Shown here in pieces: positions 24,618 through 37,944 of a stretch of 64,000 nucleotides of DNA. Source of the stretch: a bacterium (GTDB taxonomy: Bacteria; Patescibacteriota; Minisyncoccia; Phycocordibacterales; Phycocordibacteraceae); NCBI GenBank assembly GCA_037200965.1, contig JBBCGK010000001.1:640001-704000 (forward strand), written 5' to 3'. The notes below the pieces were generated by a model. It did not search any database. It was not told the DNA's origin and saw nothing but the letters and a program-made list of their open reading frames with translations. Within the stretch, counting starts at the first letter, position 1. Every line of letters begins with the position of its first letter. The position numbers and the translations under genes were made by a program.

Positions 24618-24640
24618 CCGTATTTTAAAAGGAATGAAGA

Positions 24641-24668
24641 AAACCGCCGGTAGGCGGTTTCCTTTTTT
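24641..24668 (+). terminator. hairpin AAACCGCC-GGTA-GGCGGTTT plus TTTTTT immediately after rpsJ
   Basis: 8-bp stem plus T6 run. Confidence 0.55.
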
Positions 24669-24724
24669 GTGCTGAAGGCAGGGCCTGTGCTAGGCTTTGA
24701 CGGGACAACTGTGAAGGTAGATCT

Positions 24725-24898
24725 ATGGGTCAAATGAAACGTTTGTGGGGAAAGTTGCAGACTGAAGGCAGGCAACCTCCCAAGGCCGGAAAGACGTCTG
24801 ATCAACTCGGTCTTCACCTTGATGAAGAGGCTCCGGTTGCTCACGACGGGAAGCCGGGCCGGCTCTTCTATCTGGATAAGCCAGAAAATGGAGAGTGA
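24725..24898 (+). CDS. possible small ORF (57 aa) in rpsJ-rplC spacer
   Basis: ATG with GAAGGTAG 7 nt upstream; below the track length cutoff; no homology recognised. Confidence 0.15.
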   Translation: MGQMKRLWGKLQTEGRQPPKAGKTSDQLGLHLDEEAPVAHDGKPGRLFYLDKPENGE

Positions 24899-25072
24899 GC
24901 TTCCGGCGCTACACACCTAACAAAGGCCGCGGGCGAAAGCCCGCGGCCTTGGAGTTTGCATCTTTCGGAGCCTTCGTGTAGAGTGCCCCTATCGCTACGA
25001 ACGGTGCCCTTGGCCGGTCCAATGGCAATTCGCGCTGCTGCGATTGCTGCTAGCGCGTTTTGCTTTAGCCAC

Positions 25073-25705
25073 ATGAAATTCCTACTCGCAAAGAAACAGG
25101 GCATGACCCAGATCTTCACCGACAAAGGCGAGGCTTTTGCCGGTACCGTCCTCGTCGCGGGCCCCGTTACCGTCACTCAGGTGAAGGGCAAGGAGAAGGA
25201 AGGATATTCGGCCGTGCAGGTAGGCTTTGGCGCCCGCAAAGCGAAGAACCTCTCGAAGCCCGTTGCAGGACATCTGAAGGGGAAGAGCTTCGCGGCGCTC
25301 CGCGAGTTCCGCACGGACGATGCGTCCGCGCACGAACTCGGCTCCGAAATTTCCGTCGACACGTTCGCTCCGGGAGACATCGTCCGCGTCTCGGGCGTCA
25401 CCAAGGGCAAGGGTTTCCAGGGCACCGTGAAGCGCCATGGTTTCCACGGCGGGCGCCGCACGCACGGCCAGAAGCACTCGGAGCGCGAGCCGGGGTCGAT
25501 CGGCGGATCGGGCGGCCGCGCCGGAGGCCGGGTCGCGAAGGGCATCCGCATGAGCGGGCGCATGGGCGGCGACCGTGTTACGGTCGAGAACCTGAAGGTG
25601 CTGTCGGTCGACACGAAGGCGGGCACGATCATCATTTCGGGAGCGGTTCCGGGCGCACGCGGCGCGCTTCTTGAGATAACGTCGATGCACGGCAAGAGCG
25701 CATAA
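25073..25705 (+). CDS. rplC: 50S ribosomal protein L3
   Basis: MKFLLAKKQGMTQIF start inside the 24956..25705 ORF. Confidence 0.85.
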   Translation: MKFLLAKKQGMTQIFTDKGEAFAGTVLVAGPVTVTQVKGKEKEGYSAVQVGFGARKAKNLSKPVAGHLKGKSFAALREFRTDDASAHELGSEISVDTFAPGDIVRVSGVTKGKGFQGTVKRHGFHGGRRTHGQKHSEREPGSIGGSGGRAGGRVAKGIRMSGRMGGDRVTVENLKVLSVDTKAGTIIISGAVPGARGALLEITSMHGKSA

Positions 25706-26885: not shown

Positions 26886-27734
26886 ATGAAATCCTATCGC
26901 CCGACCAGCAAGAGCCGCCGTGCCATGACGACGCTCCCGTACAAGGAGCTCCTTTCCGGCGCGAAGCCGCATAAGCCGCTCATGGGCTCGAAGAAGCGCC
27001 AAGGGGGCCGCAACAACGCGGGCCGCGTGAGCGTCCGGCACCAGGGCGGCGGGCACAAGCGCCTCTATCGCGACGTCGATTTCAAGTACGACAAGAAAGG
27101 AATCCCGGCGAAGATCGAGACCGTCGAATATGATCCGTATCGCTCGGGCTTCATCGCGCTCGCGCTCTATGCCGACGGCGCCCGCCGCTACGTGCTCGCG
27201 CCCAAGGGTCTTTCGGTCGGCGATTCCTTCATCGTCGCCGAGGATGCGCCGCTTAAGAGCGGCAACCGACTCCCGATCGGGAAGATTCCCGTCGGCACCT
27301 TCATCTATAACGTCGAACTTCGCCCGGGCGCAGGCGCGCTTCTCGCCCGTTCTGCGGGAAACTACGCGGAAGTGGTCGCGCACGACCAGGGCTATGCTCA
27401 GGTTAAATTGCCGTCGACCGAAATCCGCAGGGTGTCCGATCTTTGCTGGGCTTCGGTGGGTTCGGTGGGGAACGAGGAATACAATCTCGTGAACCTCGGT
27501 AAGGCGGGCCGCTCGCGCTGGCTTGGCATCCGCCCGACGGTTCGCGGTACGGCCATGAACCCGGTCGACCATCCGCATGGCGGCGGCGAAGGAAGGCAGG
27601 GCCGCGGACTCAGGAGGGCGAAGAGCGCCTGGGGCAAGCCGACCGGCAAAGGCCAGAAGAGCCGCACGCCGAAGAAGTACTCGAACGTCTTCATCGTCTC
27701 GAGGAGGAAAGTCGGGAAGAAGAGGAAAGGATAA
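26886..27734 (+). CDS. rplB: 50S ribosomal protein L2
   Basis: L2 motifs GGGHKRLYR, RNPVDHPHGGGEG. Confidence 0.95.
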   Translation: MKSYRPTSKSRRAMTTLPYKELLSGAKPHKPLMGSKKRQGGRNNAGRVSVRHQGGGHKRLYRDVDFKYDKKGIPAKIETVEYDPYRSGFIALALYADGARRYVLAPKGLSVGDSFIVAEDAPLKSGNRLPIGKIPVGTFIYNVELRPGAGALLARSAGNYAEVVAHDQGYAQVKLPSTEIRRVSDLCWASVGSVGNEEYNLVNLGKAGRSRWLGIRPTVRGTAMNPVDHPHGGGEGRQGRGLRRAKSAWGKPTGKGQKSRTPKKYSNVFIVSRRKVGKKRKG

Positions 27735-28668
27735 TTTTACAAGGGTAATCCCTAATTCCTGCCACCAAACCCAGTGCCCTGAACGAGCGTGAGCAGACGC
27801 TCCTCCTGCTCGGCAAGCGTCTTCGTGCGGCGGTTGAACTTCCAGGCGATCTCTCCGACGAAGAGGTACAGATGCGTACGGCGCATGCCGCCGATGCATC
27901 CGAGACGACGCTTCAAGAGCCCCCAGAAGCCCTCGATGTTGTTCGTATGCACGTCGCCGCGTACGAGCTCTCCGCCGTCATGATCCACGTACTCGTGACG
28001 GTACCCCCGCTTCTTGAGGCCGCGGTATGTTTTGAAGCCGTCGGTATACACGTACGCTCCCTCCGGCACCAGCCGCTCGATCGTGCTGAAGATGGTCCTC
28101 CAATCAAGCTTCTTGGGGAGTATGGCGACATATACCTGTCCGGAGGTCCGCGAAAAGAGCCCGAAGATGGGAAGCTTGTCGGTCCCGTGACCGCGCTTCG
28201 TTTCCAGACGCCGGATGTGGAGACGTTTGTTCTTGCGCTGGCCGCCGATGTACGTTTCGTCCATCTCGATTGGACCGGGAAGCACGGCTGGCTGGTCAGC
28301 CGTCATGACCGTACGGAGATGGAGTGCCATGCGCTCCACGCGCGAATGCGGTATTCCCGTCTCCTCAACGATACGTTTGATCGTCCGCTCCCTGAGGAAG
28401 ACACGTATGCACTTCCGCCACTCGGCTTCCGTGCTGCGGATGCCCTCAACTGGAGCTGCGTGCCCGCTCCACTCGCGTCTGCACCGCCTGCACTTCAGTT
28501 TGTTCCTGCGGAGTTTCCAGGCACGGCGGAAGGCGCAATACGGACATACAGGAGCGGGCATATATGGTGGCACTATTAGGTATTGCACCACTGTGCCCGT
28601 CAGAGAGCCTCACGCAAGGATATTTCAAAGATATGTGGTGGCAGAGTTAGGGATTACCCTTTACAAAA
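27735..28668 (-). mobile_element. IS1595-family insertion sequence (934 bp) with ~33-bp terminal inverted repeats, inserted immediately after the rplB stop codon
   Basis: TTTTACAAGGGTAATCCCTAATTCCTGCCACCA (27735-27767) vs reverse complement of GTGGTGGCAGAGTTAGGGATTACCCTTTACAAAAG (28634-28668). Confidence 0.8.
27752..28591 (-). CDS. IS1595-family (ISXO2-like) transposase
   Basis: N-terminal CPYC...CRRC zinc ribbon, DETYIGG, HTNNIEGFWGLLKR; stop inside the IR; alternative start at 28561. Confidence 0.85.
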   Translation of the reverse strand: MVQYLIVPPYMPAPVCPYCAFRRAWKLRRNKLKCRRCRREWSGHAAPVEGIRSTEAEWRKCIRVFLRERTIKRIVEETGIPHSRVERMALHLRTVMTADQPAVLPGPIEMDETYIGGQRKNKRLHIRRLETKRGHGTDKLPIFGLFSRTSGQVYVAILPKKLDWRTIFSTIERLVPEGAYVYTDGFKTYRGLKKRGYRHEYVDHDGGELVRGDVHTNNIEGFWGLLKRRLGCIGGMRRTHLYLFVGEIAWKFNRRTKTLAEQEERLLTLVQGTGFGGRN

Positions 28669-28671
28669 GAA

Positions 28672-28700
28672 AAAGCCCCGCCAGACCGGCGGGGCTTTTT
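28672..28700. terminator. bidirectional hairpin terminator GCCCCGCC-AGACC-GGCGGGGC flanked by A- and T-runs
   Basis: 8-bp GC stem with AAAAA upstream and TTTTT downstream. Confidence 0.55.
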
Positions 28701-28709
28701 CTTTCCGGC

Positions 28710-29495
28710 TTATTGGTATTCGGGCTTCAAGATGTCCGCGAAATCGGAACGCGGCAGGCGCACGGTCTGCGGACCTATGGCATACGGGCCGACGGCGTAA
28801 GGAGGGAAGAAAATAAGGAGATCGGTACCGTCAAGCGCAAAGAACTGGAAATTTCCCGCGTCGTCCGGCGACGTTCCGGTGTCGACGAAATCCGGAAGCG
28901 CGTACTCCCCGAGCGCTGCGTACAGGAATGCCCGCGATGCTCTGGAGAGCGCGTCGAGATACGGCGCGCTACGCATGAACAGATCGCCAAGTTGGAGTGC
29001 CTTGCCGGTCGTGGAATCGAATGTGAACGTGCGGTAGTAGCTGTTGGGGTGCGCACCGAGCGTATCCTCGTAAATACTGAAGACATAGGAGAGCGTACGG
29101 GGTGACGCATATGCCGCATACTCGATATCCTGCGCGTATTTCTTATCAGGCCCGAGTTCCTGAAGTTTTATATCTTCTTCCGTAAGGTTTCCGAGGCGGT
29201 TCTGGTTCTTGAATTCCGCTTCCGCGGCCAGTACCCATGTCTCCATGACCTTTGCCGCATGTGCGTCCGCCTCCGCCCCGGCGGTTACAAGAAGCGGGGT
29301 TGATGCGGGATAGATGGCGTCGATGAGGTAGTAGTCGGCGTGGTCCGCAACCGTCTTGGAGGTCGTAGTTGCATTTTCCCCGGAAGGGACAGGGGCCACT
29401 CCGGGTGCCGGATTCTCGGCCATGTACCAGAGAAGGCAGGCAAGTATGGCAACCAGCACCGCACCGAGCGCGATCCGTTCGCAAGTGGTGTTCAT
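28710..29495 (-). CDS. membrane-anchored DUF3298/RsiV-like domain protein
   Basis: N-terminal anchor; C-terminal region resembles the DUF3298 family; recognition from memory only. Confidence 0.4.
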   Translation of the reverse strand: MNTTCERIALGAVLVAILACLLWYMAENPAPGVAPVPSGENATTTSKTVADHADYYLIDAIYPASTPLLVTAGAEADAHAAKVMETWVLAAEAEFKNQNRLGNLTEEDIKLQELGPDKKYAQDIEYAAYASPRTLSYVFSIYEDTLGAHPNSYYRTFTFDSTTGKALQLGDLFMRSAPYLDALSRASRAFLYAALGEYALPDFVDTGTSPDDAGNFQFFALDGTDLLIFFPPYAVGPYAIGPQTVRLPRSDFADILKPEYQ

Positions 29496-29599
29496 GCGAG
29501 AAAGTGTAGCACCCGCATATCAGGGAAAAATGAAGGGCTCCGGAATAGCCAAATGAAAGGGCCCGGGCGGTAATGCCACCCGGGCCCCCCAACGAAGGC

Positions 29600-30049
29600 T
29601 TAAGATTTGCAGGGACCTGTCCCGCAGGTTTTGCAACTTTTGCACGTTCCGTGTCTTATCCCTTTTCTCTTTCGGGAATTTCGCGCCTCTTCTCCGGGCA
29701 TGGCTTCGCCGAAGCGCGCGAAATAGAGCTTCGAGGTTCTCGCGTACCCTCTGCGGGAGCTTGCGTTCGGCTCAAGTTCAGGCTGATGGTGGAGGAAACC
29801 GCCGAAGACCGTCTGACAGTCCGAAGCGTACTTCTTCGTCATCAGGATATGTTCATGCCAGGCCCAGTCGATCATGTGAGACGGTGCCAGAGATTTGCGC
29901 GGATTTTCGCGGCAAAGCGTGTAGAACCGGCGCAAACCGAGAACGCACATCTTTGCGACCGGTTCGGTAAGACGCAAGGCAAGTTTGTGCTCCACTGCCC
30001 CGAGGTCGAGTCTCCGGATAGCGCTTGGAAGGTTCTTTTTGACGGCCAT
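29600..30049 (-). CDS. small DUF1399-like protein with Cys-rich C-terminal tail
   Basis: DWAWHEHILMTKKYASDC..FGGFLHH resembles the WHxHxL motif of GRDP/DUF1399; tail HGTCKSCKTCGTGPC. Confidence 0.3.
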   Translation of the reverse strand: MAVKKNLPSAIRRLDLGAVEHKLALRLTEPVAKMCVLGLRRFYTLCRENPRKSLAPSHMIDWAWHEHILMTKKYASDCQTVFGGFLHHQPELEPNASSRRGYARTSKLYFARFGEAMPGEEARNSRKRKGIRHGTCKSCKTCGTGPCKS

Positions 30050-30257
30050 CTCGGCCTCCTGCTGTGATTGCCGTTCCAGAGTAGCAAGGCGCGCAGCACC
30101 AGGTCAACCATAGAATCATACAAGTATAATGTGTTTTGTCTACGTTTTAAAACGGCCTTGCAAGTACGAGCTCTTTTGAAACGGTACGATTTGACTCTTT
30201 ATCCCGGCTCCTGTATCTTGCACCTATCTCGCGCTATGCGCGGGCTTTACCTTACTC

Positions 30258-30608
30258 ATGTCCCGATCGCTCAAGAAAGGTCCCTACGTGGACGCGAAGC
30301 TCATAAAGAAGCTTCGCGACAAGAAACCGGCTACCGCCGGGGTGATTAAGACGTGGGCGAGAGGTTCCCAGATCGCCCCGGAGATGGTCGGCTTCACGTT
30401 CGGCGTCTATAACGGACAGAAGCACCTCGAGGTGCTCGTCTCCGAGGAGATGGTAGGGCACCGCCTCGGCGAATTCTCCCCGACCAAGAAGTTCGTCCGG
30501 CACGGAGGCAAGATGCAGAAGGAGCTCGAGCAGAAGCGCCAGGAGTCCGAGATCGCGTCCGCGAAGGCCGCCTCAGCCGCTCCTGCCAAGGCCCCGGCAA
30601 AGAAATAA
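30258..30608 (+). CDS. rpsS: 30S ribosomal protein S19 with Ala/Lys-rich C-terminal extension
   Basis: SLKKGPYVD...KHLEV. Confidence 0.9.
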
Positions 30609-33761: not shown

Positions 33762-33785
33762 AAAAGTTTTAAAATGCAGGGAGCC

Positions 33786-33814
33786 TTGACGGGAGTCAGG
33801 GCTCTTTGTATCAT
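33786..33814 (+). promoter_or_regulatory. sigma70-like promoter TTGACG-N17-TATCAT directly after rplE
   Basis: good -35/-10 with 17-nt spacer, upstream of island gene A. Confidence 0.4.
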
Positions 33815-33895
33815 ATATTCGGATACTTCACATTCTCGGATAGTGACGTTAACGGTATCCACGTCGAGCGTCCGATGGCATCAAGGAGATGTGTC

Positions 33896-34309
33896 ATGCG
33901 GTTTGTCTGTGATCTTGAGGATTTGTTCTGGATGAGTAATAGATACGAGCATACTGCCAGCAATGAGATCAGGCAGGCGCTTCTTGCCGGAAAGGATACG
34001 GACGGAACTCCGCGCTGGACGATTCCGGGGGCTGGAATGTTCAATCTTGCCCAAGTCCTCTGGTCGGGCCAAAACTCGGTTGGCCATGAAGAGGACTGCG
34101 CACGAGACCGTATGTTCACCAGTCTCGAGCTCATGCGTCGACTGGGCCACGCCCGTGCACGCTCGCAGGCTGTGTTTTTTCTCGTCATTCTCCGGAGGAT
34201 GGAGCGCGAGAACAGCGACTCCATCGAAATCAATATCCCGTGGACCCGTGCGAAGACGAGGTGCATGTATGTCAAACGGAAACCAAATATCGAATTCGGT
34301 CTGGTATAA
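33896..34309 (+). CDS. hypothetical protein A (137 aa) of the rplE-rpsN island
   Basis: ATG with AAGGAG RBS 7 nt upstream; hairpin terminator 34316-34341 downstream. Confidence 0.45.
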   Translation: MRFVCDLEDLFWMSNRYEHTASNEIRQALLAGKDTDGTPRWTIPGAGMFNLAQVLWSGQNSVGHEEDCARDRMFTSLELMRRLGHARARSQAVFFLVILRRMERENSDSIEINIPWTRAKTRCMYVKRKPNIEFGLV

Positions 34310-34556
34310 CCGGACAGGGCGCGGCGGAACTTTCCGCCGCGCCCATCGTGTGTATGGGTCACCATTCTATATCAGGTACATACGAGTGAATTTGACGTAC
34401 TAAGTTATACATACCTTTTTTACGAATTAGTCCTGCAAGTGCTAATTTCTGGCAGCAGAATTGTTCCAATATCCTAAAGGAAACCCCGCAAAGCTTGGTT
34501 GCTTTGCGGGGCTCGACCGGAGGTCGATTTTTCAAACAAGGCTTAGTATGTCCGGT

Positions 34557-35348
34557 TCAGGTTTTGGGGTCGATGCTCATCGCGCGCGGTATCGATTTCC
34601 GTTGCCAGTTGTCGATTTTTCGCCTATCAGAACTCCTGCCGATTATGTATAAGACGAGTGAGATGATGCATACGGCCACGCCCGGGCCGAAGGAACCGAT
34701 GTCCAAAGCCTCCCCGGCCCACACACACAGGGCAAGGTATATGAAGCCCGTAGCACCGAGCACGTAGCTGACAGCCGTTAAACCGTTGCTCTCGCTCTCT
34801 TTGCGCCGATACGAGGTTAACAGGGATTCGGCGATCGGGAGTTCGCTTCCCGGTCCTTCATCCCACGCGGCAAGAGGATATACCCGGCCATCGTGAGCTC
34901 GGCCCACGAGCAGGCTCGGCCCGCTCGTGCCGAATGCGCCGGACTCATACTTGGGATACTCGGGAAGAGACTGACTGATCCAGACCTCGATGTCGGCGAA
35001 GCAGTCCAGCCAATTTACCCATTCCAGACCTTCGAGTACTTTGCGGGGGAATTTTTGCCCGTACCATGCTCGATAGGTCGTGCTGTAGGCATAACCATGG
35101 TACGTGTTCACAGTGCGCACTTTGCGGACACACTGCCACCCTTTCTGAGCCGAGAATTTCCCGGGAAGAGAGCATCTCCACTGGCTCAGGGAATTGGGGT
35201 CGAAGGGTTCGAGAAGCGGAACATGCCTACGAATTTCTTCGATCCGGTTAAGCCGAGGCAGCGCCATGAGTGCGTTCCTCGCATCCGCGTTCAGCGTCCG
35301 TCCGTAGGCGGCGACTGCTTCGATTCTTCGGGATTGGTATTCAGCCAT
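34557..35348 (-). CDS. hypothetical protein B (263 aa) with two C-terminal TM helices
   Basis: start ATG overlaps the upstream gene stop (TGATG coupling); C-terminal hydrophobic helices AVSYVLGATGFIYLALCVWA and VAVCIISLVLYIIG; terminator hairpin 34479-34510. Confidence 0.45.
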   Translation of the reverse strand: MAEYQSRRIEAVAAYGRTLNADARNALMALPRLNRIEEIRRHVPLLEPFDPNSLSQWRCSLPGKFSAQKGWQCVRKVRTVNTYHGYAYSTTYRAWYGQKFPRKVLEGLEWVNWLDCFADIEVWISQSLPEYPKYESGAFGTSGPSLLVGRAHDGRVYPLAAWDEGPGSELPIAESLLTSYRRKESESNGLTAVSYVLGATGFIYLALCVWAGEALDIGSFGPGVAVCIISLVLYIIGRSSDRRKIDNWQRKSIPRAMSIDPKT

Positions 35349-35956
35349 CACACGTCCTCCTTGCTCGGAGCCGCGACGAACGCGACCCAGTTGTGCCACG
35401 AGATTTCGGTCGGGACGGAGCCCTGCGAATTCTTGAGGCTGCAGAGGGAGGAATAGAAGTAGTTGATGAGGCCGGCCGGATTGCCGTTGAGCGGTTCCGT
35501 GACGAACGCCACGAAGCTGCCGTCGGGTATGCGCGGGTCGTGCCCGAGATCGTCCGCGAGCCGCGGGCGCTCTGCGAACAATGCGTCTCGATACTCGACC
35601 GGTGCGGGAACGAGGCTGGCCTTCTGGCCGTATTCCTCGATCTGCCCGGGCCTGAGCCGACCGTTTTTGCCCGAATCGCCGAAGCGGACGAGCATGAGGG
35701 TTTTGTCCTCACCGCCGATCGCGATCCTCACCGCGCAGGCCTTGCCGCCTTTCGGCGGGTCGATCCGCGCCGTGGTCGCGATCTCGCTATAGAGCCCGGA
35801 GAGCTCTGCGAGAACACGCTCAAGCCTGCTGCTATGCGCGGGCTTGACCACCGCGGCGAGCAGCTCATTCAGGTCTGCGCCGGTTTGCCCGCGAACGAGC
35901 TCGCCGATCTGACCGAGCGCCCCGAAGAGCACCGTGGCCGTGACAGGTTTTGGCAT
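35348..35956 (-). CDS. hypothetical protein C (202 aa), translationally coupled to B
   Basis: ORF with 1-nt stop/start overlap with B; no recognisable domain. Confidence 0.45.
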   Translation of the reverse strand: MPKPVTATVLFGALGQIGELVRGQTGADLNELLAAVVKPAHSSRLERVLAELSGLYSEIATTARIDPPKGGKACAVRIAIGGEDKTLMLVRFGDSGKNGRLRPGQIEEYGQKASLVPAPVEYRDALFAERPRLADDLGHDPRIPDGSFVAFVTEPLNGNPAGLINYFYSSLCSLKNSQGSVPTEISWHNWVAFVAAPSKEDV

Positions 35957-36272
35957 GACACTTCCTTTCTATGAACCCCTCACTCCTTAGCGAAGCCCCA
36001 GGTTCAACAGCCTTACCTCCACCCGATTGTGGCGGTTTCAGCGCGCAACAGCCCACTTTAGTGAGCCCCTGAGCGCTGAAACCGCCCCTAGCCTTGTTTT
36101 CAAGGGACGTATCTATCTAAGAGTGTATACTATATATCATATCTTGTCAAGTTTTCCGTAATGGTTCAATACCTTGGATGATTCCAGGGTATTGACAGAT
36201 AATACTGTATGTGCTAACGTTACTTAAGCGTTCGGGCCGCTCTTTTCAGCTCGGAACCAATGGAGGAACATC

Positions 36273-36668
36273 ATGAACAAGATTTATCTGGCTATCATGG
36301 CCGTCATTTCCCTCTCCGGCATCGCCCTGGCCTTCAGCCCCGAGGCGGTGTTCGAGAGCGCTTCCCGGGTTGACCCGGGCGGCACCCTGTCGTTCGCGAA
36401 CTTCTCCTTCTGGACGTGCGTCTGCATCGGGGGCGTCGTTTTCTTCTTCTCCCGTCGCGGATCACAAGGAAAAGAAATCGCGAGGATCGGCTTGCTTCTC
36501 GGAGCCGCGGCCGCGTGCCTTGCGCTCATGTCGCTCACTCACTACTTCGCGTACTGGCATCAGGGCCTCGCGACGATGCTGGGCATCATCTTCTTCGTCT
36601 CCCCGCTGCTCGGCATCGCGATCGCGCTGTCCGACCGACAGCAGACATCGGTTCCGAACGGAGGCTGA
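36273..36668 (+). CDS. small membrane protein D (131 aa, 4 TM)
   Basis: hydrophobic helices; hairpin GGAGGCTGAAGCCTCC just downstream. Confidence 0.45.
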   Translation: MNKIYLAIMAVISLSGIALAFSPEAVFESASRVDPGGTLSFANFSFWTCVCIGGVVFFFSRRGSQGKEIARIGLLLGAAAACLALMSLTHYFAYWHQGLATMLGIIFFVSPLLGIAIALSDRQQTSVPNGG

Positions 36669-37522
36669 AGCCTCCGGTCAAGGACTCGGTTCGCACGCAG
36701 GTACGGCCCCACGCAATTCGGCGTGGGGTCTTTTGGATATATTCGACGCCGCCGGATATATATATAGTGTCCTTCCCGTTCGAGATATCGGCTGGTACGA
36801 TCAAGGATCCGGCACGTCCTCGGCTTGTGCAATGTCATCAAGCCGTAGTTGCGCTTGAACCAGTCCTCAATCGCAACACCTTCCAAACCCTCGGCGCGGT
36901 GTCTTCCGGCGAAGACACTTGCGAGGCTGGTGATTGAGAAGGCAGGTCACGCGGTCAGCCTGTCGCTGGGACAGCGCTCCGAGTTCCATGTCCTCGGGAA
37001 AGAACCGGCGCAGCTGTTCTCGCATGCACCCCGCTCCCAGGGATGATGGGGACGGGCGAAGTATACCCGGGCATTGGTATCGCGCTCAATGAACTGCCAG
37101 AGCGTGAACCCGGTACCACGATCGTACGTGATGGTATGTGCAGGAAGATCAGGAAGCGCTCCTCGCGCTTCCTGGTGCACCGTGTTCGTTTCGTCGTCAG
37201 ACACGAGCCGCGCCCGCAAGGAACCCGCCTCTTTCGGTCAACACGGGCCAGAAACCTTGCACGGTCGCGTCCGACCGCGGTATGGTCTCGTCGGATATGA
37301 TGCGTCCCTCTTCGGTGATCTGTTCGGGCGGTCAGCGCGCAGAAGCGCGGACAGAAACACCCGCTCGTCGCGTGTCAAGTGATGATGCGTTGAAGGCCCG
37401 AATGATGGATACCATTCGGGCTTGAAGACAGAAGCATTGCGTTTCAAGCTCGGATTTAAGCTATGATTTAGCGTTGACGCGGGTTGAACCCCGGGCAAAG
37501 CAGGCGCGGACCTCGTTCTCAT
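36560..37522 (-). pseudogene. degenerate IS30-family transposase remnant (multiple frameshifts)
   Basis: fragments ITYDRGTGF...YFARPHHPWERGACEN (36947..37219) and an HTH-like LTRDERVFLSALLRA (37238..37522), collinear with intact IS30 transposases but in different frames. Confidence 0.55.
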
Positions 37523-37674
37523 CCATTTTCGCGAAGTTCGTGATTTCGGTAAAGTTGTTTAGGCCGTCTGACGAAAGATTATCCCGCTTGGCCGCTCGAC
37601 CAAGCAGGGCTCCTGTTTGACGCCCCGTAACCTATTTGATACAGTGTCCTGAAGCTCCGCGGAGCTATTTTTGT

Positions 37675-37944
37675 ATGGCTAAAACCTCCCAGCTTGCCCG
37701 GTACGCCAAGAAGGCGAAACTGGTCAAAAAGTACGCCGCCAAGCGCGCGGCTCTTAAGGCTGCCGGTGACTCTGAGGGCCTCCAGAAGCTCCCGCGGAAC
37801 TCCTCCCCGGTTCGTTTGAAGAGCCGCTGCGCCGTTTCCGGCCGCTCCCGCGGGTATCTCCGGGCGTTCGGCCTCTCCCGCATCCAGTTCCGCGAGATGG
37901 CGAGGGAAGGGAAGATTCCGGGCGTAAAGAAGGCGTCGTGGTAA
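37675..37944 (+). CDS. rpsN: 30S ribosomal protein S14
   Basis: [15 protein letters not shown]...[26 protein letters not shown]. Confidence 0.85.

Follow-up and report, generated by a model that had tools for sequence, protein, structure and literature searches.

An IS1595-family insertion sequence behind rplB, at an apparently older break in the S10 ribosomal-protein cluster of Paceibacteria

The 64-kb stretch of DNA analysed here (the window; positions 640,001 to 704,000 of contig JBBCGK010000001.1 in assembly GCA_037200965.1) carries on its plus strand the tuf-S10-spc ribosomal-protein cluster of a Patescibacteriota bacterium, in which rplB and rpsS, the genes for ribosomal proteins L2 and S19, lie 2523 bp apart. 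We consider it very probable that this gap contains a 917-bp insertion sequence (IS) of the IS1595 family, flanked by a 7-bp TTTACAA target-site duplication and inserted in the spacer between rplB and the terminator behind it; that the DUF3298 and GRDP-like genes lying beyond the element are older residents of the junction; and that rpsS is served by a promoter of its own, leaving no polarity to be overcome.

The element occupies positions 27743-28659 on the minus strand and runs from GGGTAAT to ATTACCC. Its terminal inverted repeats are imperfect, with arms of 25 and 24 nt that align with one mismatch and one indel: a right-hand repeat (IRR) at the 3' end of the transposase gene (27743-27767, GGGTAATCCCTAATTCCTGCCACCA) and a left-hand repeat (IRL) at the 5' end (28636-28659, reverse complement GGGTAATCCCTAACTCTGCCACCA). 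They share a core, GGGTAATCCCTAA, which lies at 27743-27755 and, inverted, at 28647-28659, and has exactly these two matches in the 64 kb; a third inverted repeat matching the IS was not found in the window. Abutting each end of the element is a copy of TTTACAA, at 27736-27742 on the left and 28660-28666 on the right, and reading the flanks as 8 nt gives no match. A first-pass annotation of this DNA, made from the sequence without database searches, had recognized an IS1595-family element after the rplB stop, as the repeat pair and the Pfam and NCBIfam matches given below bear out, but had described it as 934 bp long, bounded by inverted repeats of about 33 bp and beginning at the nucleotide after the rplB TAA (27732-27734). 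The repeat pair is real and shorter than proposed: its supposed outer 8 nt consist of one T and the 7-bp TTTACAA, which was read as repeat because TT...AA is partly self-complementary. The element is accordingly 917 bp long and begins 8 nt past the stop codon, and the 8-bp duplication that the annotation had suggested looking for is present as one of 7 bp.

An uninterrupted version of the site is found in a metagenome relative (L107, L2 92% identical), in which rplB and an orthologue of the DUF3298 gene are convergent, with stop codons 55 nt apart and no IS. The spacer between them reads TAA-tcca-TTTTACAAAAAGAAAGCCGCCGCAC-gaa-GTGCGGCGGTTTTCTTTT-atttc-TTA and holds a single TTTACAA. Taking the IS and one TTTACAA out of the window leaves TAA-T-TTTACAA-AAGAAAAAGCCCCGCC-agacc-GGCGGGGCTTTTTCTTT, which matches the relative base for base around the target; in short form the target stretch of the relative, TAA-tcca-TTTTACAAAAAGAAAG-hairpin-TTA, agrees with this reconstructed empty site. 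Because the uninterrupted site matches the window without the IS, we conclude that the element entered between the rplB stop and a terminator that was already in place.

The transposase gene of the element, on the minus strand at 27752-28561, encodes 269 aa from its ATG, or 279 aa from an in-frame GTG at 28591, and its stop codon (TAG, 27752-27754) falls within the right-hand inverted repeat, as the first-pass annotation had noticed. A protein identical to the 269-aa form is on record under the NCBI name 'IS1595 family transposase', while an exact look-up of the 279-aa GTG-start form returned no record. The sequence matches Pfam PF12762 (DDE_Tnp_IS1595) at 2.6e-28 with 99.4 bits (cutoff 27), covering model positions 2-153 of 153, and NCBIfam NF033547 (transpos_IS1595) at 6.6e-35 with 120.9 bits (cutoff 75). 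Its catalytic block consists of DETY (101), YTDG (172) and HTNNIEGFWGLLK (205-217), from which D101, D174 and E210, then K217, are the likely catalytic residues; at the N-terminus a CxxC...CxxC pattern spans residues 6-27 (C6xxC9, C24xxC27). An imperfect internal copy of IRL (28560-28584, 80% over 25 nt, direct repeat family D2, compared with 28631-28655) overlaps the transposase start codon, and might serve the transposase as a second binding site or have an autoregulatory role.

In ISfinder the IS1595 family is divided into the groups ISPna2, ISH4, IS1016, IS1595, ISSod11, ISNwi1 and ISNha5, and it is related to the eukaryotic Merlin transposons. An N-terminal zinc-ribbon is present in all groups except IS1016, and simple members measure ~0.7-1.1 kb. 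The window IS resembles the family in its single DDE_Tnp_IS1595 transposase gene, its CxxC...CxxC pattern, its GG-starting repeats, its A/T-rich duplication and its length of ~0.9 kb. When aligned by eye, its catalytic block, DETY...YTD...NNIEGFW...K, also parallels the signature DESY...YTD...NGIENFW...K of ISApl4 and IS1016 (PMC12561309; PMC8101967). Target duplications are usually 8 bp in the IS1595 family (PMC8101967) and 7-9 bp in the IS1016 group (PMC12561309); the 7-bp duplication differs from the former and lies within the range of the latter. The closest transposases on record are ~70% identical, so the element would receive a new IS name, and it is a previously unnamed IS within a known family. 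The subgroup to which it belongs has GGGTAAT ends, is large and comes mostly from metagenomes, with one member annotated from Candidatus Kerfeldbacteria; three related elements, with transposases 61-67% identical to that of the window, have GGGTAAT/ATTACCC termini and are 911-918 bp long.

End mapping against other copies, which the first-pass annotation had recommended, places the same ends on the element: two further copies match it at 100% identity over the sequence compared, one a 919-bp Logan unitig of the IS (L006) and the other on a 13.6-kb contig of GCA_015655515.1 (L005), where the IS has a different flank. That flank does not occur in the window and thus offers no second empty site for comparison. 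The perfect identity between copies indicates that the element has recently been active. A multi-copy IS might, on the other hand, have been wrongly joined to ribosomal-protein contigs during assembly, a doubt that the first-pass annotation had itself raised. Such an IS does break short-read assemblies exactly here: Logan contigs from SRR28211700 (L001, left junction; L002, right junction) and SRR10968228 (L088, right junction) all end 28-30 nt inside the element, and related elements occur in apparently chimeric contigs (L092, L094, L095). An assembly artefact nonetheless has only a remote probability, given that matching 7-bp duplications stand on both flanks, that removal of the IS and one duplication copy yields the orthologous sequence of L107, and that the left and right junctions were each assembled independently in other samples. 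De Bruijn assemblers stop in just this way at a repeat present in several copies, which accounts for the contig ends inside the IS. The filled junction is present in at least three data sets (the source of the window, SRR28211700 and SRR10968228), the unitig breaks at the IS junction show no sign of an empty allele, and, since both junctions recur in other data sets, the insertion is evidently established in the population.

Among the related elements, L092, L094 and L095 share one IS type and one right flank but differ from each other in the left flank, and L096 and L104 are copies without any duplication. These cases are probably chimeric metagenome contigs assembled across the repeat, or else the product of recombination between copies, and owing to them the related elements are only partly usable for establishing the length of the duplication.

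Behind the element, at 28666-28704, lies a predicted bidirectional intrinsic terminator, which the first-pass annotation had also pointed out. It is formed by inverted repeat I2, with 17-nt perfect arms and a 5-nt loop (AAAGAAAAAGCCCCGCC-agacc-GGCGGGGCTTTTTCTTT), preceded by an A-run and followed by a T-run, and folds equally well on both strands (minimum free energy, MFE, -30.4 and -32.0 kcal/mol; z -5.7 and -5.3). The orthologous terminator of L107 stands in the same place with different stem bases and compensatory changes. This comparison shows the hairpin to be older than the IS and to lie outside it; as a terminator it would serve both rplB, on the plus strand, and the minus-strand DUF3298 gene. 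It stands upstream of the transposase end of the IS at a distance of 6 nt, and the IS sits between convergent genes.

The position of the terminator is also pertinent to the status of the two genes beyond it, which had been described as cargo carried by the IS or accompanying it. Some IS1595-family members reportedly carry passenger genes, and the two genes have a slightly lower G+C content (0.53-0.58) than the ribosomal-protein genes (0.60-0.67), as might be expected if the whole 2.5-kb block had moved into the operon as a transporter IS or a larger transposon with DUF3298 and GRDP-like passengers. We give this next to no probability. The inverted repeats enclose the transposase gene only, with no third repeat in 64 kb, and the 7-bp duplication flanks the 917-bp unit; elsewhere the repeat unit measures 917-919 bp, and in L005 it has a different flank; orthologues of the DUF3298 gene (65% identity) occupy the rplB junction in two relatives, L106 and L107, neither of which has an IS; and the terminator separating the IS from the DUF3298 gene is orthologous to that of the IS-free L107. 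Membership among passenger-bearing elements was considered and rejected, both genes lying outside the repeats and the L005 copy lacking them. The genes accompany the element by adjacency and are not its cargo.

The proposed sequence of events is illustrated by L106, a close relative (L2 C-terminus 99% and S19 89% identical). Its order is rplB, terminator, an unrelated 86-aa open reading frame (ORF), the DUF3298 gene, 143 nt, and rpsS, without the small GRDP-like gene and without the IS. Comparison of these arrangements suggests that the DUF3298 gene was resident in the genus-level clade, that the small gene block (~29496-30145) was added in the lineage of the window, and that the IS arrived last. 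The 86-aa ORF (L106 3828-4088) is low in G+C and coiled-coil-like, and fills the short stretch that separates the rplB terminator from the DUF3298 3' end, where the window has the IS.

Insertion so close behind an essential gene had been taken in the first-pass annotation to imply either polar effects offset by an internal promoter or very recent transposition. Indeed, rplB and rpsS are 18-143 bp apart and share one operon in most bacteria, including the other phyla retrieved here, and the IS or the whole insert might accordingly have split a continuous S10 operon, with rpsS rescued by a promoter that the insertion brought or with the event too recent for selection to have acted. The nearest genomes to the window are, however, those of Candidatus Kaiserbacteria and other Paceibacteria metagenome-assembled genomes (L2 59-70% identical), and among the 13 Paceibacteria relatives with rplB and rpsS on one contig the junction is expanded in every one, to 126-4042 bp, in most cases with a terminator and an rpsS promoter. 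The rpsS promoter of the window, moreover, lies 1.5 kb away from the IS and is conserved in L106, which has no IS, and three independent data sets contain the same insertion, their unitig breaks giving no hint of an empty allele. Splitting of the operon by this insertion is therefore very unlikely, and neither compensation nor extreme recency is called for: the two genes were separated before the IS, and its junction is shared by at least three data sets. Taken together, these sequences indicate that the split is older than the IS, and that the junction would already have held a terminator, opposite-strand genes and an rpsS promoter when the element arrived.

The expansion of this junction is selective. 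Across these 13 genomes the remaining S10/spc junctions mostly measure 150 bp or less, with secondary expansions at rpsJ/rplC and rplE/rpsN and, once, at tuf/rpsJ. Relative to the canonical bacterial operon (rpsJ-rplC-rplD-rplW-rplB-rpsS-rplV-rpsC-rplP-rpmC-rpsQ), whose gene order is wholly kept in the window, the clade is cut at rplB/rpsS and, less regularly, at rpsJ/rplC and rplE/rpsN, each cut having a terminator, variable accessory genes, and a new promoter and leader. A predicted intrinsic terminator follows straight after rplB in nearly every relative. What fills the rplB/rpsS gap is unrelated from genome to genome (L008-L023): MazE/MazF in L008; DgkA in L021; orotidine monophosphate (OMP) decarboxylase, a phosphoribosyltransferase and dihydroorotate dehydrogenase (pyrF/E/D) together with DgkA in L018; a 1007-aa protein and a Y1 transposase in L023; DUF5674 in L017; no ORFs in L013 and L015; and ORFs without family assignment in the other relatives. 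The DgkA gene lies directly 5' of rpsS and in the same orientation in both genomes that have it there (L018 9820-10215, L021 6905-7312), and may be an occupant of the junction conserved within a sub-clade.

In the window, rplB (26886-27734, plus strand; Pfam Ribosomal_L2_N and Ribosomal_L2_C) is the final gene of the upstream ribosomal-protein transcription unit, and rpsS (30258-30608, plus strand; Pfam Ribosomal_S19, 2.5e-32) opens the downstream one. The predicted promoter of the latter, TTGACT-17-TATCTT, lies at 30191-30219 on the plus strand, followed at 30228-30244 by a 5' leader hairpin (z -2.1) and then a U-rich run directly before the rpsS ATG at 30258. From the -35 hexamer to the ATG this region is nearly identical in L106, where both hexamers are kept and the promoter spacer differs. 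The arrangement recurs in 11 of 14 Paceibacteria rpsS junctions as TTGACx-16/17-TAnnnT, a short hairpin, a U-run and then the ATG, and a promoter, hairpin and T-run in the same layout precede rpsN, both in the window (37617-37677, hairpin 37653-37666) and in L008-L023. Because rpsS has a conserved promoter and leader of its own, we consider that it does not depend on rplB transcription and that there is no polarity for the cell to compensate.

The module shared by rpsS and rpsN comprises a hairpin of 5-9 bp (often GAGCTC..GAGCT), a T-run and an ATG without a Shine-Dalgarno (SD) sequence, and could act as a 5' stabiliser, an attenuator or a ribosomal-protein leader. Single-sequence folding of the leader hairpins gave z scores from 0 to -3.2, and consensus folding on a MAFFT alignment of them returned no structure. 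Rfam gave no hit at the gathering score anywhere in the window, and its sub-threshold hits at the junction all fell on the terminator hairpin.

We propose that the IS entered the AT-rich spacer separating the rplB stop from the bidirectional terminator, which would already have closed the rplB transcription unit in the Paceibacteria lineage of the window, while rpsS and the genes downstream would be transcribed from their own conserved promoter and leader. Transcripts of rplB would now cross ~0.9 kb of IS sequence in antisense to the transposase gene and end at the old terminator (28704), and the same terminator would shield the transposase gene from read-through arriving from the DUF3298 side. 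Antisense transcription and shielding would both keep transposase expression low, and the insertion near neutral.

Several points weigh against this account. The zinc-ribbon model PF12760 scores 18.3 bits on the transposase, under its cutoff of 25.4, and the duplication, at 7 bp, is shorter than the 8 bp usual in the family; these are the only two respects in which the element departs from what is expected of an IS1595 member. The target is partly palindromic (TT...AA), which lets end placements shifted outward by two bases give an identical empty site: the duplication would be 3 bp for AAGGG...CCCTT and 5 bp for GGG...CCCTT. Clean duplications are seen in two cases only, TTTACAA in the window and TTTATAA in L092, and just one other copy of the exact IS (L005) shows its flank, on one side only. 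The promoter, terminator and read-through, finally, are predictions from sequence and its conservation. We favour the GGG/CCC termini because related copies L096 and L102 have TA or AT straight after CCC, and because L092 provides a second clean 7-bp duplication.

The remainder of the gap is organized as follows. From rplB to rpsS there are the minus-strand transposase ORF, the strong hairpin of the terminator, two minus-strand ORFs and an AT-richer intergenic stretch. The first of the two ORFs (28710-29495), convergent with rplB, encodes a 261-aa protein with a hydrophobic N-terminus that matches Pfam PF11738 (DUF3298) at 8.7e-10 with 39.8 bits (cutoff 24.1); among structures in the PDB it matches MPT64 (2hhi, 1e-6) as well as 3cyg and 3s5t (DUF3298), so that by sequence it resembles the secreted MPT64/DUF3298 proteins. 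The second (29600-30049), divergent from rpsS, encodes a GRDP-like/UCP032817-like protein of 149 aa with a WAWHEHIL motif and a C-terminal CxxCxxCxxxxC. The first-pass annotation had thus characterized both products correctly, as a membrane-anchored DUF3298-like protein and a small protein with a WHEHIL motif and a cysteine tail.

The 149-aa protein belongs to a very large family, with 5167 representative homologues at E <= 1e-3 in an exhaustive HMMER search, and 7 of 10 sampled homologues match PF07173, GRDP-like (DUF1399), at the WHxH block. The protein itself had no match in the Pfam copy used, even at E <= 10, and its assignment to PF27765 comes from precomputed annotation only; a word-based homologue search returned only the protein itself, a PDB sequence search returned nothing, and a literature search on UCP032817 found nothing. 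Neither the DUF3298/MPT64 nor the GRDP-like/UCP032817-like family has a defined function. The small gene has ahead of it, on the minus strand, a promoter-like site (30115-30142, TAGACA-16-TATGAT, 10/12 matches) and behind it a terminator-like hairpin (29559-29587, MFE -37.3 kcal/mol, z -2.9) followed by UUUCAUUU. tRNA genes, as possible integration targets, were not found in the window.

Two further junctions of the cluster are open in the window. The rplE/rpsN break (33762-37677) extends over 3.9 kb and holds ORFs without a family match and a small membrane-like ORF, together with a fragment of an IS30-family transposase (36947-37219, minus strand; NCBIfam transpos_IS30, 5.7e-15, partial). 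In the rpsJ/rplC gap (24618-25081, 464 bp), rpsJ is followed by a terminator (~24643-24668), and a promoter-like TTGCAT-17-TAGAGT lies at ~24957. Within this gap a conserved GGaCCAATGG box (window ~25018-25027) lies 5' of rplC, as it does in L008, L011, L017 and L024; the rplC leaders, denoted 'GGACCAATGG', continue in the relatives with a hairpin and T-run after the box, and represent a candidate structured leader for rplC-rplB.

The setting of the IS itself is a familiar one. ISs have been reported to be enriched beside the ends of coding sequences and between convergent genes, with terminator-like sequences just upstream (PMC13548323, ISME J 2026), a study whose main text has no IS1595 result (0 occurrences). 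The window IS likewise lies between convergent genes, a few bases from the end of a coding sequence and with a terminator just upstream of its transposase gene, but differs in having as its neighbour an essential ribosomal-protein gene in the normally invariant S10-spc cluster. Flanks of other copies and of relatives with GGGTAAT ends (L005 918-965; L092, L094 and L095; L089) often place the element 4-8 nt away from an intrinsic terminator, at AT-rich and partly palindromic sites of the form TTnnnAA. This proximity would be expected if the element prefers AT-rich TTnnnAA targets, or if copies persist nowhere but at these places, and the cases are too few to tell these explanations apart. The IS is thus routine and in a typical niche, and the clade-wide operon break with its conserved leader is the more interesting by-product of its study.

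It is tempting to speculate, though with more doubt than confidence, that the S10-spc cluster of Paceibacteria is permanently cut at rplB/rpsS, and often at rplE/rpsN and rpsJ/rplC, these cuts serving as safe-harbour hot spots that gather accessory genes, toxin-antitoxin pairs and ISs; that each restart has an undescribed clade-specific leader, regulating or stabilising ribosomal-protein mRNAs and composed of a promoter, a 5' hairpin (often GAGCUC...GAGCU) and a U-run directly ahead of an SD-less ATG; and that the GGGTAAT subgroup of IS1595 specifically targets TTnnnAA at the feet of intrinsic terminators.

The syntenic ribosomal-protein block is widely used for phylogeny of Candidate Phyla Radiation (CPR) genomes, and a multi-copy IS within it breaks short-read assemblies at rplB/rpsS, as seen across three data sets. 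Beyond this practical consequence, a highly conserved bacterial operon appears to be constitutively split across a CPR class, with lineage-variable genes in the gap followed by a conserved, predicted restart promoter and leader. The rplB/rpsS split is thereby a place to study how ribosomal-protein synthesis is coordinated, and how gene gain is tolerated, in reduced genomes.

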